Below, in pieces: positions 1-16,401 of a stretch of DNA of 64,000 nucleotides; the first letter of the stretch is position 1; each line of letters begins with the position of its first letter. The notes beneath the pieces are model-generated. The model was not told the origin of the DNA and made no database searches. It was given only the letters and a program-made list of their open reading frames with translations. The position numbers and the translations under genes were made by a program. This DNA comes from Candidatus Poribacteria bacterium (GTDB taxonomy: Bacteria > Poribacteria > WGA-4E > WGA-3G), in contig OZ242029.1 in the NCBI GenBank assembly GCA_965205015.1, positions 352,001 to 416,000 on the forward strand, given 5' to 3'.

Positions 1-921
1 ATGAGACTGGTGCTTGAGTTTCCGCAGGAACTCACCAAACGCAAGATCCGAGACCTGTTTCCCCCACAAGCGTTTCATACCCGAAAGGTTCAGGTCTTCA
101 AAGAACAGTATATCAAACTTACGACACAGTTCTATCGCCAGTTTCCAATGGTGATCTGTCCGTTGGTTCGCCGTTTTCTTGTGGATACGCGCAACGGTCT
201 TGCGTTCGCGTTCTTGGTTGTTAGACCCTTTCACCTTACGGGAATACGCCTTTTGTGCTTCTGCTAACTTTTCAGCGTTCTGTTTGTAAAACATCGGAGA
301 CGTATACCTATGACCATCACTGCCAATCAGAAAGTCCGTAATACCCATATCAAACCCTTCAGCTTTACCCGTCTTGGGTTCGATCTTGATTTCGGTATAG
401 TCTTCTGTCAGCGTAATATACATATCTCCGAGCGCATCCCTCGTTACATGAACTTCGATGATGTGTCCCTCGATTTTACGATGCAGGGCGAAGCGATACC
501 AACGTCCATTCAGTCGGATTTTATAGGTCGGGTGATTTCTTTGGTTTTTCTGCTTATCCAGGACTTTTTCAATCTTGACCTGTTCACCCCGAAACGTCAT
601 CCCTTTGTGTTTCTTGCAAGACTTGAACTTTGGGTGACCTCTGCCAAGGGTTTTCATTTCTCTAAAGGATTGTGCCAAACGCTTTAGCACATTTTGCAAC
701 GCCCAAGAGTAAGGGATATTCCAATGCTGATACTTCTCAAGTTTCTTCAGTTTCGTCAAATGTTTCGACAGTTTCGCATACGAAAGCCCTTTCCCATAGC
801 GGCGGTAATATCGCATACAGAGTGCCAAAAAATGATTTTTCACAACACCACAGATATTGCAATCGTCGTGCAAGTGACGCAACGTCTTATCCTTGAAAAG
901 TTTATGTTTTGTGTTTCGCAT
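1..921 (-). CDS. tnpB: TnpB RNA-guided endonuclease (3' end outside window)
   Basis: Manual translation from ATG 921: MRNTKHKLF...GRGHPKFKS...GKAEGFDMGITDF (RuvC-I)...ILFFEDLNLSGMKRLWGKQVSDLAFGEF (RuvC-II). The frame is open to base 1, so it is absent from the ORF track. Confidence 0.9.
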   Translation of the reverse strand, partial: MRNTKHKLFKDKTLRHLHDDCNICGVVKNHFLALCMRYYRRYGKGLSYAKLSKHLTKLKKLEKYQHWNIPYSWALQNVLKRLAQSFREMKTLGRGHPKFKSCKKHKGMTFRGEQVKIEKVLDKQKNQRNHPTYKIRLNGRWYRFALHRKIEGHIIEVHVTRDALGDMYITLTEDYTEIKIEPKTGKAEGFDMGITDFLIGSDGHRYTSPMFYKQNAEKLAEAQKAYSRKVKGSNNQERERKTVARIHKKTANQRTDHHWKLAIELCRKFDILFFEDLNLSGMKRLWGKQVSDLAFGEFLRKLKHQSH

Positions 922-944
922 GGTTTATCAAGTCTCAAGTCTTT

Positions 945-1008
945 AACCCCTATACAGTGGGTGGGACCGACACGTAACCTTGCGGTTATGCTGTATATGT
1001 CGGTCCAA
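945..1008 (-). ncRNA. Putative structured 5' leader RNA (pseudoknot) of tnpB
   Basis: Stems GGACCGACAT/GTGTCGGTCC, TAACC-GCAA-GGTTA and ACCC/GGGT, plus pseudoknot TATACAG/CTGTATA. All pairings covary with the copy at 13620-13677. Confidence 0.6.
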
Positions 1009-1020
1009 CTTGATATTCTC

Positions 1021-1050
1021 ATTATACCACACTTTCGGACCAAACGTCAA
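1021..1050 (-). promoter_or_regulatory. sigma70-type promoter of tnpB element
   Basis: TTGACG-18nt-TATAAT with extended -10 TG; conserved in the second tnpB element. Confidence 0.7.
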
Positions 1051-1132
1051 GCAAAAAATGAACGCTTTGGTCCTTTCCAAGAGGGCGAGACTGTATCCCA
1101 AAGCTAAAGCATTGGGTTTTCGTCTCGGAAGT

Positions 1133-1300
1133 TTAGATAAAGTGATTCTGCTCACACCATTTCAGGATTTCAGGGTCGGGTGTACCTCTTACGGGTGCCC
1201 CAGTATCGCCGATCATCCAAACTGTTAACGATGACTCATGGTGGAGTAACTGTGCGCGGTAGGTTGGTGGAACGTGCTCGTCTAACAAATACGCGGTCAT
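1133..1300 (-). pseudogene. DUF5615/PIN-like toxin, truncated by tnpB element insertion
   Basis: MTAYLLDEHVP...GTPDPEILKWCEQNHFI stops exactly at the IS left end; lies downstream of a DUF433 gene. Confidence 0.75.
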
Positions 1301-13478: not shown

Positions 13479-13575
13479 GAGATTCACCTAAGTTTACGGA
13501 TTGGAGGTTTCCCAAACTTTTAAGTTTGGGAGGAAAATCCGCCCTCTTGGAAAGGACCAAAATGTTTATTTTCCC

Positions 13576-13605
13576 TTGACACTTGGTTCGAAATTGTGGT
13601 ATAAT
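13576..13605 (+). promoter_or_regulatory. sigma70-type promoter of tnpB element
   Basis: TTGACA-18nt-TATAAT with extended -10. Confidence 0.7.
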
Positions 13606-13619
13606 ATTAGTATCGTGTT

Positions 13620-13677
13620 GGCAGACATGTTTAGCATTACCGCTTGGTAATGTGTCTGCCTCCCACTAAGCAGGGGA
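13620..13677 (+). ncRNA. Putative structured 5' leader RNA (pseudoknot) of tnpB
   Basis: GGCAGACAT/GTGTCTGCC, ATTACC-GCTT-GGTAAT, TCCC/GGGA, and pseudoknot TGTTTAG/CTAAGCA. Confidence 0.6.
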
Positions 13678-13701
13678 TAAATACACGATACACGATATAC
13701 C

Positions 13702-14970
13702 ATGAAATTAACCTTTGAATATCCTGTGTATCCAACACAGACCCAGGAAGAAACTTTATTAGGATGGACCTGACCATCTCTGTGAACTTCAGAACTCTGC
13801 GCGCAACAATCGCAAACATGCGCATGAGACAGAAGGTCGTTTTGTTTCGCGATATGACCAGGAACAACTCTTGAAGGGTGCCCGTGAGAAATATGACGAT
13901 TTTCGCCAAGTCCCTCAAGATTTCCAAGTGTCTATCCTCAAACGTGTTGACAGGGCCTTTGATGCCTTCCGTAAGCGGTGTAAAGAAGGAGCAGAGAAAA
14001 AAGGGTATCCTCGCTACAAAATGCGTGTGCGTTCTCTGACGTGGTGCTTGCGAAAGCATAAACGCAAAACAGGTGAACGTGTCCGCCAAAATCCGATACG
14101 AGAAACCACATGGAAACACGACCGTTTGAAAGTGCCGAAACTCGATGAAATCAAGATATACATGCACCGTCCGCTTCAAGGCGATCCGAAAGAAGTGACA
14201 CTCGTGAAAAAAGCAAGTGGCTGGTATGCACATATCACTTGTGAACTACCTGACACTCCAAAGGTTGAACCAACAGATGCGATTGCGGTTGATGTTGGCA
14301 CGACACACTATCTGACGACTTCCGAAGGTGAAAAGGAAGAGAATCCGCGTTGGTATCGCCAAGCAGAAGGTTTGCTCCGAAAACACGCGAAAGACCTATC
14401 GCGTAAAAAGTTAGGTAGCAACCGAAGAAAGAAACAACAACACAAACTCGCTTTACACCATGAACGAACCGCGAACAAACGCAAAGACTTTATCGGTAAA
14501 CTCGTCTACAAACTCTATCATCATCTAAAAAACAACGTCCTTATCGCTGAAGACCTCAGCGTATCTAACATGGTTCAGAATAAACACCTCAGCAAGAGCA
14601 TCAGCGATGCATCTTGGGCAAAGTTCTTTCAGTGGGCTGGAAACATAGTTCCGAAAGAGACGGTTTCCACTTCCACCAAGTCGATCCTAAGAACACTTCG
14701 CAAATCTGCTCTGCCTGCGGTAAGAAGTCGCCCAAGAAACTCTCTTTAGCGATACGCACCTTTGATTGTAGTTTTTGTGGCACGGTTTTAGACCGAGACC
14801 ACAACGCTGCGATAAACATACTTTTACGGGCGGCTTGCGCCCTTCGTGGAGAGCGTTGGGTTACCGACCTCTATGAAGCGAGAAACACCAACGAAGCACG
14901 AGACACGGGCTTTGAGACTGCTGAACAACTGCTGTTGTTTAACGACCTCTTAACAAGCCCAAGTCTTTAG
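13702..14970 (+). pseudogene. tnpB: TnpB with two frameshifts (~13768 and ~14647)
   Basis: MKLTFEYPVYPT start; AIAVDVG, IAEDL, CSACG..CSFCG zinc finger and DRDHNAAINIL, spread over three segments. Confidence 0.88.
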
Positions 14971-15006
14971 GCTTGGGTACATTGACCTCCTAAATCCTGA
15001 AATTCA

Positions 15007-15054: not shown

Positions 15055-16401
15055 CAGGGGTATTCAGTTTTCGGTTTTTTCGTAATATTTTTCACATCTG
15101 TTAATATTATAAAATAAACAGATACAGCGTGACTTTTCCCGCTGTATCTGCTATACTTCACCGTAAAAAACCATCACATTTTTTGAGGTGAATCATGACA
15201 AGAAGTTCCTCTTGCCACTTACTTGACATATTAGCAGAAGTTCCGGATCCACGCCATAAAAAAGGGAAACGCTACAACTTGGGGTCTATCCTTGCGCTGC
15301 TCGTCATCGGTGTAATGTCGAATCATAAAGGGTATACGTCTATAGCGACTTGGGCACGGCATCAAGGGGCCCTGGCAAAAGCGTTAGGTTTCAAATCAGA
15401 GAAGACCCCGTGTGCTGGAACGCTTCATAATCTTTTGAAGCGTCTTGACGTCGTGAGTCTCGAAGCCTTACTCACGAAATGGGTGTTTTCAAAACTTGAA
15501 AGTCTTCAAGTTTTGAAAACACAGGATTTACAAGGGGTGGCGATAGATGGCAAAGAGTTATGTGGCTCCAAAGACCCAGAAACCCGATACCGCACACATT
15601 TACTCTCCGCTGTCTCTCATGAGTTAGGGATTACCCTTACACAGCGGGCTGTCAGTGGAAAAACAAATGAGATCCCCATCTCAACGCAACTTCTGAAAAC
15701 CTTTGATGTCACCGGGAAAGTCATAACAACAGATGCACTTTTGACCCAAAGAACCTTTTGTAAAGAGGTTCTCAAATATCACGCAAACTATGCAATGCCC
15801 GTCAAAGAGAATCACAAACAGATGTATCACGACATTCGCGAACTCTTTGAACCGCTTTCGGAGACAGACACACCACACGTCCAAGCACGACGGTTTCAGA
15901 ACCTACACACCGAGGCAGACGCACACCTTGATACCCACACAGACGTTGAAACATCACACGGGTTTATCACCACACGCACGCTAACAGCAAGCACACTCTT
16001 GACGGATTATATCAACTGGCCAGGACTCGCACAAGTGTATCAATACCAATCCAAGCGGGAGAATACCAAAACAGGCAAGACTACCTACCAGACGCAGTAT
16101 GGCATCACGAGTCTTACACCACAAGACGCATCCGCAGAAACTTTGCTCAAACTCCGACGCCAACACTGGACGATAGAAAACAAAGTCCATTGGGTGCGAG
16201 ATGTCGTCCTCGGGGAGGACGCTTCACAAGCAAGAACAGGGAGACTCCCACAAGTCATGGCTGCCCTACGCAACACTGCCCTGGCTCTCTTACGCTTTGA
16301 CGGACACACAAAAATTGCGGAAACACTGCGATTTTTCGCTGCAAAACCTAAACTCGCAGTTAAACTCATACAGTGACAAAACTTAAAACTAAATACCCCT
16401 G
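15055..16401 (+). mobile_element. ISAs1-family insertion sequence
   Basis: 17-bp IRs CAGGGGTATT(C/T)AGTTTT; 10-bp TSD GTAAATTCAT at 15045-15054 and 16402-16411. Confidence 0.93.
15195..16376 (+). CDS. ISAs1 transposase
   Basis: VPDPR, AIDGK, KTNEIP, ITTDALLTQ, HWTIENKVHWVRDVVLGED. Confidence 0.95.
   Translation: MTRSSSCHLLDILAEVPDPRHKKGKRYNLGSILALLVIGVMSNHKGYTSIATWARHQGALAKALGFKSEKTPCAGTLHNLLKRLDVVSLEALLTKWVFSKLESLQVLKTQDLQGVAIDGKELCGSKDPETRYRTHLLSAVSHELGITLTQRAVSGKTNEIPISTQLLKTFDVTGKVITTDALLTQRTFCKEVLKYHANYAMPVKENHKQMYHDIRELFEPLSETDTPHVQARRFQNLHTEADAHLDTHTDVETSHGFITTRTLTASTLLTDYINWPGLAQVYQYQSKRENTKTGKTTYQTQYGITSLTPQDASAETLLKLRRQHWTIENKVHWVRDVVLGEDASQARTGRLPQVMAALRNTALALLRFDGHTKIAETLRFFAAKPKLAVKLIQ

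Follow-up and report, generated by a model that had tools for sequence, protein, structure and literature searches.

The window (the whole stretch of 64,000 nucleotides of Candidatus Poribacteria DNA that was analysed) contains two insertion elements, termed here copy A, on the minus strand, and copy B, on the plus strand. In copy A, tnpB begins with the ATG at 921-919 and fills positions 1..921, which hold its first 307 codons, the gene continuing past the window edge; its product matches Pfam OrfB_IS605 with E = 4e-18. By Pfam (OrfB_IS605 and the Cas12f1-like TNB) the protein downstream of the leader described below is TnpB. The earlier note had spoken of two tnpB genes, which holds for the ORF of copy A, but that of copy B is a frameshifted pseudogene. 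Its decayed tnpB and right end occupy 13702..14986, with tnpB pieces in at least three frames, and the part from 13871 to 14749 aligns at 81% identity with an intact 436-aa relative, over its residues 57-331. The right end of copy B consists of a right-end hairpin followed by TACATTGAC and ends at 14986.

The left ends are built alike. Outside each of them lies a pentamer that we regard as a putative target-adjacent motif, TTATC in copy A (1136..1140) and TTCAC in copy B (13483..13487), the boundaries being drawn by comparison of related copies; TTATC also adjoins the left end in several related elements. Inside it is an imperfect hairpin at 1086..1127 in copy A (outer stem 1127-1122 with 1091-1086, inner hairpin 1116-1097) and at 13497..13541 in copy B (outer stem 13497-13502 with 13536-13541, inner hairpin 13510-13531), the outer and inner stems of which vary in concert among copies as judged by eye. 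A 22-mer with the same letters in both copies follows (1066..1087 and 13540..13561). Its core, used as a 20-mer anchor, occurs 2 times in the window against 0.01 expected; the exact core was found in 52 stretches among the genome contigs, every one from Poribacteria, and lies upstream of 34 of 61 distinct leaders. Next comes a sigma70-type promoter at 1021..1050 in copy A (-35 at 1050-1045, extended -10 at 1026-1021) and at 13576..13605 in copy B (-35 at 13576-13581, extended -10 at 13600-13605). The 5' leader RNA had been assigned to 922-1136 and 13488-13701; these spans do cover the whole left end, but the RNA proper is confined to 922..1014 on the minus strand (cmsearch 103.4 bits) and 13612..13701 on the plus strand (117.3 bits), as defined in both copies by sequence, fold and covariation.

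The leader is a structured RNA of ~90 nt with a three-way junction of helices P0, P1 and P3, a hairpin P2 on top of P1, a 7-bp pseudoknot in which the P1-P2 bulge pairs with the P3 loop, and an A-rich strand (UAAA) 3' of P3. In copy A (minus strand) the order is P0 5' strand 1014-1008, P1 5' strand 1006-998, pseudoknot 5' strand 997-991, P2 hairpin 990-973, P1 3' strand 972-964, P3 962-946 with the pseudoknot 3' strand 957-951 inside its loop, and two P0 3' strands, copy 1 at 940-934 and copy 2 at 933-927. The corresponding parts of copy B (plus strand) are P0 5' 13612-13618, P1 5' 13620-13627, pseudoknot 5' 13628-13634, P2 13635-13652, P1 3' 13653-13660, P3 13661-13677, pseudoknot 3' 13666-13672, and P0 3' copy 1 13683-13689 and copy 2 13690-13696. 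The left-end hairpin, the shared 22-mer, the promoter, P1, P2, P3 and the pseudoknot were all found where the earlier note had them and with the sequences that it quoted. It had missed the outer helix P0 with its tandem 3' strand, had counted T997 (T13628 in copy B) in both P1 and the pseudoknot although it belongs to the pseudoknot only, and had left P3 one pair short: a fourth pair covaries cleanly (A-T in 35, T-A in 25 and unpaired in 1 of 61 copies).

The claim of conserved pairing, made from two copies, turned out to be far stronger than two copies allow. In alignments of 32, 61 and 87 distinct homologous leaders, standard pairs fill 96.4%, 98.4% and 98.7% of the pair cells (2791 cells in the 87-copy set), and this level was reached in 0 of 500 shuffles. 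Controls in which the partner strand was slid gave 28-45% paired cells for the 87 copies (28-48% over the three sets). Over the three alignments, 22-26 of the 35 pairs show double-sided changes. The pseudoknot was left out of the covariance model used for alignment, yet 98.4-99.3% of its cells are paired and 6-7 of its 7 pairs have changed on both sides; in the 87 copies it occurs in 44 different sequences, with 99.3% pairing and compensatory changes in 6 of the 7 pairs. RNAalifold independently finds P0, P1, P2 and P3, and the two window leaders have folding z scores of -3.2 and -4.1. The helices are variable and covary around a set of invariant positions, namely the GG/CC base of P1, CCC/GGG of P3, the AG/CU end of the pseudoknot and unpaired A, G and UAAA. 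There are 56 G.U against 5 A.C combinations in the helices, therefore it is the sense strand that folds; it may be noted that an equal asymmetry would arise if the top strand folded as single-stranded DNA. In sum, the sense strand carries a conserved structured element that covariation supports.

The position of the promoter fits this element closely. It reads TTGACG-18-TATAAT in copy A (11 of 12 consensus positions) and TTGACA-18-TATAAT in copy B (12 of 12), with TG present in both. Over 61 distinct copies, the -10 box agrees with TATAAT at 6/6 positions in 41 and at 5/6 in 18, the -35 box has the full consensus in 37, and TG stands ahead of the -10 in 45. The spacing from the -10 to the first P0 base is exactly 6 nt in 51 of the 61, so that in most copies the geometry of this near-consensus sigma70 promoter predicts a +1 at the first base of the P0 5' strand; a transcript starting downstream of the structure, which would have spoken against a leader RNA, is not suggested. 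At its other edge the structure ends 5 nt ahead of the tnpB AUG. An SD-like 4-mer is present in only 1 of 61 leaders, against 17 of 37 large ORFs of the window with naive start calls.

Just 5' of this AUG the P0 3' strand is duplicated in tandem, and both copies covary with the 5' strand. P0 is 92-96% paired when closed with copy 2 and 93-97% when closed with copy 1, and the same variable positions change in all three strands. Judged from this covariation, the two alternative P0 partners are both under selection. In a pseudoknot-free thermodynamic ensemble, the mean occupancy is 0.57 for copy 1 and 0.16 for copy 2, copy 1 being favoured in 48 of 58 cases. In one locus (L048) the second partner overlaps the AUG, as seen by eye. 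Beyond the main class of leaders, the tandem-partner signature is strictly present in 3 of 19 distinct leaders against 0.16 expected. Other cases outside the main class were noticed by eye, with shifted registers.

Among the collections searched, the leader family is confined to Candidatus Poribacteria, where it was found in 83 of the 150 sampled genomes with more than 1000 matches, at 21-60 or more matches per genome. Blastn gave no match to the leader in 72,556 plasmid and 50,697 phage records. Of 80 metagenome loci with TnpB relatives, a leader at E<=1 is present in 1, the one at 80% identity, and in none of the other 79 (31-40% identity). The exact X ... X'X' signature is seen in 1 of 72 usable upstream regions. 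The elements that carry the leader are tnpB-only IS200/IS605 elements (IS1341-type) that have multiplied in Poribacteria, which shows that these sponge symbionts carry a large, active and modular IS605-type population. Between subfamilies, the TnpB proteins encoded after the leader share only 25-40% identity, and subfamilies with this leader type have visibly different 3' scaffold regions. One leader common to such different proteins argues against a TnpB-specific operator, and the partner of the leader is probably something common to all elements (host machinery) and not each TnpB, as far as the comparison of the sequences indicates.

Matches of the pseudoknot strands to guide, flank or scaffold were looked for and rejected, as the own 7-mers occur outside the leader 7 times against 12.8 +/- 3.8 in permutations over 60 elements. 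Recurrence of the P0 strand elsewhere is not convincing (77 occurrences against 64.6 +/- 6.9). Copies with the same pseudoknot have unrelated right flanks by eye. We also compared the divergence of the ten variable pseudoknot positions with that of 4-fold degenerate sites in the same element pairs (85 elements, 627 non-independent pairs, bins with n>=20), which gave 0.35/0.15, 0.46/0.25, 0.55/0.37 and 0.59/0.46, while the rest of the leader differs by 0.07-0.15. Yet the pseudoknot divergence is bimodal, with identical pseudoknots in 9 of 20 pairs of the 0.10-0.20 bin. Also, the elements L054 and L220 have near-identical ORFs and a whole leader that differs, a pattern that points to leader swapping by recombination. 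Because of the bimodal distribution and this swap, faster-than-neutral change of the pseudoknot is not established, and diversifying selection on it was dropped as an explanation.

Some elements have no ORF at all. A group of mini-elements (L018, L019 and L032) retains the promoter and the region ahead of the right end, together with a leader built in the same way, and in one of them P0 shows a compensatory change between lineages. Another ORF-less element, L037, has neither promoter nor leader. This evidence comes from few lineages, and the ORF-less elements could be recent deletions that have not yet decayed. Since the leader is kept in some of them, control of tnpB translation is not the whole story. 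The cis-regulatory or operator reading of the earlier note stands in so far as there is a structured 5' element on the sense strand, but not as an account by tnpB translation alone. For a separate trans-acting ncRNA, which it had also considered, we found no evidence.

Our preferred reading, to which we give a probability of about 45%, is that the leader works in cis as a 5' module, stabilising the tnpB mRNA and omegaRNA precursor and throttling the translation of TnpB; we infer the steps from fold to function. The leader would act in cis and as RNA, on a transcript that comprises the tnpB mRNA and the 3' omegaRNA precursor. Its compact fold would lock the 5' end in a helix and so shield the long precursor against decay pathways requiring an unpaired 5' terminus. 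The P0 5' strand would pair with either of the tandem identical heptamers near the AUG, and this, together with the missing Shine-Dalgarno sequence, may keep TnpB translation low and tunable while the RNA remains abundant. The reason for the duplication of the P0 3' strand is a guess on our part. Also, protection of a 5' end needs only a simple terminal hairpin, and stabilisation alone does not explain the junction, the pseudoknot and the invariant bases of P3 and the junction, which hint at a specific partner.

Such a partner is central to the possible but unlikely alternative of a sensor switch, riboswitch-like or protein-sensing, in which the core binds a small molecule or host protein, selects the P0 3' strand and thereby gates translation or stability. 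The anatomy of covarying variable helices around invariant positions is riboswitch-like, the two mutually exclusive P0 pairings are both conserved, and one core serves very different TnpB proteins. But a ligand pocket would have few conserved unpaired bases to draw on, the leader is limited to one mobile-element lineage in one phylum, and the gene context has no pointer to a metabolite. Nor does it match any riboswitch of Rfam. Over the whole 64-kb window no Rfam match reaches the gathering score, the check including the IS605-orfB and HEARO families that the earlier note had asked about, and around both copies only chance matches of snoRNA type appear at E<=10, none to a ribozyme, riboswitch or antitermination RNA. 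A bolder form of the idea, and a still less probable one, is a new class of RNA switch: a pseudoknotted sensor for a host factor or small molecule common to the elements would select which tandem strand pairs with the 5' end and so set how long the omegaRNA precursor lives and how much TnpB is made over dozens of co-resident copies, and a nearly copy-specific pseudoknot would prevent mispairing between paralogues.

That TnpB itself binds the leader, which would mimic part of the omegaRNA scaffold, and in this way represses its translation or is loaded onto the transcript that encodes it, is doubtful. In its favour, TnpB binds RNA and has a pseudoknot in its guide RNA, other RNA- and DNA-binding proteins are known to exert feedback through mRNA pseudoknots, and the leader adjoins the AUG. 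Such an autogenous operator fits poorly with the one leader type found in front of TnpB subfamilies of such low identity and different scaffolds, and with pseudoknot strands that have no sequence match elsewhere in the element. Pairing between the leader and the omegaRNA region was considered too and rejected, the cognate duplex having -53.2 against -54.4 kcal/mol for non-cognate ones (47 elements).

We think it improbable that the leader is a processing element, that is a new self-cleaving ribozyme or an RNase site that defines the transcript end and possibly frees a leaderless tnpB mRNA or a small RNA. In favour are the compact, pseudoknotted fold and its invariant junction bases, carried by a mobile element, and an AUG without Shine-Dalgarno sequence 5 nt past the structure would suit a leaderless message. 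Still, self-cleaving ribozyme classes (hammerhead, HDV-like, twister, pistol, hatchet and others) gave no Rfam model match even at E<=10, and with a promoter of its own at the right distance there is no obvious need to trim upstream RNA.

Very improbable in our view is a role as DNA, with the single-stranded top strand folding during excision or integration and assisting the Y1 transposase TnpA. IS200/IS605 elements do move as single-stranded DNA of the top strand, and the fold is on that strand within ~230 nt of the left end. But the leader is found at E<=1 in 0 of 6 tnpA loci from these genomes, so transposition itself does not require it; the one tnpA-tnpB element studied closely lacks the leader and combines a hairpin at its left end and a similar promoter with an ordinary Shine-Dalgarno sequence, AAGG. 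Also, the 5' edge of the fold is the predicted +1 and its 3' edge coincides with the AUG, G.U-type pairs are common in P2 (37 of 427 cells), and the true left-end hairpin is separate and ~70 nt upstream. Hardly credible, finally, is a transcription-level device such as an RNA for processive antitermination, with which polymerase would pass the right-end hairpin and enter the flanking guide: the leader is the first RNA made from the promoter and is retained by ORF-less elements that yield nothing but an RNA running to the right end, but the idea is pure analogy, there is no likeness to known antitermination RNAs in Rfam, and no terminator was identified that would require bypass.

Cas12 descends from TnpB, itself a compact nuclease used in genome editing, and to our knowledge almost nothing is known of how native elements control the production of TnpB and its omegaRNA. 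Published TnpB work, in the portion of the source consulted, used artificial 5' UTRs (PMC10278001). The leader is a second structured RNA, at the end of the element opposite the guide, with textbook covariation that includes a pseudoknot; it is common to very different TnpBs and retained in some elements that make only RNA. It is therefore a clean new candidate entry for RNA-family databases, and its small fold suits structure determination. It gives a testable handle on the self-restraint of transposons and is possibly a portable module for expression control. In the literature on TnpB, IS200/IS605 and Poribacteria transposases, the titles and beginnings of abstracts have no tnpB 5' leader, and no paper that joins TnpB with Poribacteria was found.

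The known RNAs that come nearest differ from the leader in definite ways. The omegaRNA (reRNA) of TnpB covers the tnpB 3' end together with the right end of the element and carries a guide derived from the flank. Its other names are IS605-orfB-I (RF03065), which appears in the Rfam 15 paper (PMC11701678), and, in archaea, sotRNA (PMC4615843); it is likewise a structured non-coding RNA of IS200/IS605 tnpB elements. The leader, however, has an internal promoter, contains no flank sequence, matches no Rfam model, and lies at the 5' end, after the left-end hairpin and ahead of the tnpB start. In full-length copies the right end follows ~1.33-1.41 kb downstream; the two RNAs are separate, as the earlier note had held. 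In IS200, a stem-loop in the tnpA 5' UTR hides the ribosome-binding site and is thought to keep translation low. It is likewise a 5' UTR structure near the left end in the same IS family, but a simple hairpin over the tnpA Shine-Dalgarno sequence, whereas the leader places a three-way junction and pseudoknot before tnpB, has no SD-like 4-mer in 60 of 61 cases and has a duplicated closing strand. HEARO, the IscB omegaRNA (RF02033), is a large pseudoknotted RNA encoded likewise upstream of an OMEGA nuclease gene; it begins with a guide from outside the element and serves IscB, while the leader precedes TnpB, starts ~120 nt inside the element and has no Rfam match. The bridge RNA of the IS110 family also comes from the non-coding 5' end of an IS and has hypervariable segments, but its loops pair with target and donor DNA, whereas the two hypervariable strands of the leader pair with each other and are not found again in the element or its flanks. 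Autoregulatory mRNA pseudoknots (phage T4 gene 32, E. coli rpsO/S15 and the alpha operon/S4) lie likewise in a 5' leader near the start codon, and the leader may by analogy work like them, except that it is also kept where the ORF is absent. The conserved sense-strand pairing expected of a structured cis-acting mRNA leader is there (96.4-98.7% of cells). The two P0 partners, which both covary with the 5' strand and are both populated in the computed ensemble, may be exclusive pairings of the kind that a riboswitch expression platform uses.

The window has two tnpB elements, copy A (minus strand) and copy B (plus strand), whose parts follow one order. Outermost, beyond the element itself, is a short motif (TTATC in copy A, TTCAC in copy B); next come an imperfect left-end hairpin, a 22-mer of the same sequence in both, a promoter of sigma70 type whose -10 is extended (TTGACG-18-TATAAT in copy A, TTGACA-18-TATAAT in copy B), a structure of about 90 nt and finally the ATG. 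This ATG opens a 307-codon frame with an OrfB_IS605 domain (Pfam) in copy A, continuing past the window edge. The tnpB of copy B is disrupted, with pieces in at least three frames, the central one 81% identical to an intact 436-aa relative over residues 57-331; its right end lies at 14986 (plus). A 393-aa DDE transposase gene at 15195-16376 (+; Pfam DDE_Tnp_1_assoc and DDE_Tnp_1) begins about 200 nt past this end, so that two mobile elements adjoin. An inverted repeat, GGACCAAA ... TTTGGTCC, flanks the -35 box at 1037-1073 (minus) and 13552-13589 (plus), with its right half inside the promoter spacer and one wobble in copy B; it is also present at the equivalent position of related loci and may serve as an operator or, in read-through RNA, form a hairpin.

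The structure before the ATG, the leader, lies at 1014-922 (minus) and 13612-13701 (plus). All pairings quoted for it in the earlier note are present in both copies, and the folds of copies A and B are more stable than shuffles (z = -3.2 and -4.1). When 32, 61 and 87 distinct leaders are aligned, with MAFFT and by model, standard pairs make up 96.4%, 98.4% and 98.7% of pair cells, with both-sided changes at 22 to 26 of the 35 pairs. None of 500 shuffles attained the observed pairing, and sliding the partners by 1-3 columns lowered it to 28-48%. RNAalifold recovers the helices P0, P1, P2 and P3 without guidance. The pseudoknot between the P1-P2 bulge and the P3 loop, whose columns were not fitted by the alignment since our covariance model (made from 32 leaders) leaves it out, pairs at 98.4-99.3%; all four Watson-Crick types occur at its four or five central pairs, and the number of different 7-mers is 41 for the 61 sequences and 44 for the 87. 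The fourth P3 pair switches cleanly (A-T in 35, T-A in 25, one exception), and the excess of G.U over A.C in the helices (56 vs 5) identifies the folded strand as the sense strand. The conserved pseudoknotted leader proposed earlier is thus borne out by covariation in all three sets of distinct leaders, with controls far lower, and as a structure it is real beyond reasonable doubt.

The entire domain is enclosed by an outer helix, P0, which the earlier note overlooked. Its 5′ strand starts six bases past the -10 in 51 of the 61 copies, which is the predicted +1 (first base at 1014, minus, and 13612, plus, in the window). The 3′ strand exists as two tandem copies, ending five bases upstream of the ATG, and both covary with the 5′ strand (pairing of 93-97% for copy 1 and 92-96% for copy 2), a variable triplet (AAG, AGG, GTG, ACG, TCG and others) changing in all three strands. 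Both pairings are populated in the computed ensemble, which ignores the pseudoknot (mean 0.57 for copy 1, 0.16 for copy 2). A Shine-Dalgarno-like 4-mer precedes the tnpB ATG in just 1 of 61 leaders; among large ORFs of the window, with starts assigned naively, 17 of 37 have one.

The 20-base core of the 22-mer was found in 52 stretches of a species-level genome collection, all titled Candidatus or uncultured Poribacteria, and a simple pattern places the same leader type at 33 of 54 core occurrences (window included). In five Poribacteria genomes the covariance model gave at least 40, 60, 41, 21 and 24 matches, with 150 candidates scored per genome, and it matched in at least 83 of 150 sampled ones (up to 25 candidates scored per genome). 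The plasmid and phage collections searched yielded no relatives of the leader; among 80 metagenome loci with TnpB relatives it is present only at a single locus of 80% identity, the other 79 (31-40% identity) being without it. At least four TnpB subfamilies of 25-40% mutual identity stand behind the same leader, with OrfB_IS605 and a Cas12f1-like TNB domain in 4 of 4 subfamily representatives scanned; the left-end module is therefore conserved far more than its cargo. The pentamers outside the left end vary by sub-lineage (TTATC, TTCAC/TCATC, TTCAA, TTTAC), as do the right ends (ATCAC or TTGAC), the promoter-leader module being common to all.

Y1 transposase genes occur in the leader-bearing genomes (2-7 matches each); six tnpA loci searched for the leader at E<=1 were all without it. 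The one examined in detail, L088, is an autonomous tnpA-tnpB element (1300-1450 and 1447-2975) in which tnpA (Y1_Tnp, E = 4e-41) and a 370-aa tnpB share 4 nt. Upstream lie a left-end hairpin, a promoter with the boxes TTGACA and TATAAT and an ordinary Shine-Dalgarno, AAGG; the element is without the pseudoknotted leader, the 22-mer and the GGACCAAA ... TTTGGTCC repeat.

Short elements without an ORF are numerous and measure about 265-640 nt between the left-end motif and the right end (L004, L006, L009/L034, L013, L017/L050, L018, L019, L029/L042/L047, L032/L039/L051/L038, L036, L037). They retain the left end and the last 150-200 nt before the right end, which is the scaffold region of the omegaRNA, the TnpB guide RNA; as a rule a promoter and a structured leader are retained too. 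They have the look of tnpB elements reduced to an RNA-only (guide-only) form. In L037 both promoter and leader are absent, so deletions of every kind occur. The leaders of L018, L019 and the L032 group are quite different in sequence and have the same architecture, pseudoknot included, and where two L032-type lineages differ in the 5′ strand of P0, the second 3′ copy shows the corresponding change. A second leader class directly follows the promoter in L009, L034, L029, L042 and L047, starting GTGTAAGGTTGC and ending GTGTAAAGC, with internal hairpins that differ from the main class. Further classes are seen in L017/L050, L004/L013 and L006, and several of the non-main classes end, like the main one, with a UAAAG-like strand.

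Copies with identical leaders have unrelated flanks, which argues that the elements are active. Recombination between co-resident copies is suggested by chimeric leaders in which the two halves of P1 or P0 stem from different variants and have lost their pairing (L005:701-819, L040:3967-4085, L010:2972-3088, L052:4502-4617, L028:2191-2305), and by L054 and L220, which have near-identical ORFs and leaders that differ as a whole. Compared over the same element pairs, the ten variable pseudoknot positions diverge more than 4-fold degenerate sites in every well-filled bin, and the leader outside the pseudoknot less. The pseudoknot differences are bimodal (either none, or changes at about three pairs in five), which together with the L054/L220 mismatch indicates that leader swapping by recombination accounts for the variability at least in part; we therefore do not claim diversifying selection on the pseudoknot.

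According to PMC10278001, TnpB produces omegaRNA from its own mRNA. Since the omegaRNA overlaps the tnpB 3′ end, the transcript of this promoter would be both mRNA and guide precursor, and the sequence features point to the leader as an RNA working in cis on it. Our favoured reading, to which we give a probability of about 0.45, is that the leader prolongs the life of the precursor and holds TnpB translation low: the base-paired 5′ end would protect the precursor, and the AUG without Shine-Dalgarno, with two alternative P0 partners, would keep translation weak. Such a role would account for the leader starting at the predicted +1 and ending at the AUG, for its absence from elements that need tnpA translation, for its retention in RNA-only elements and for its indifference to the TnpB type downstream. 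It leaves the elaborate core unexplained and does not establish the reason for the doubled closing strand; these two features make a sensor switch the main rival, which we consider unlikely. That the leader is the omegaRNA itself is rejected by its position at the opposite element end, the absent guide and the absent Rfam match, which agrees with the separation of the two in the earlier note. A HEARO/IscB RNA or bridge RNA is likewise rejected.

The leader belongs to none of the ribozyme and riboswitch families of Rfam 15, and searches of the literature, supplements excluded, turned up no account of a leader RNA at the 5′ end of tnpB. We regard it as a new RNA family whose closing device is unusual. 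Its nearest functional analogues we take to be the structured leaders found on transposase genes, together with mRNA pseudoknots of the autoregulatory kind.
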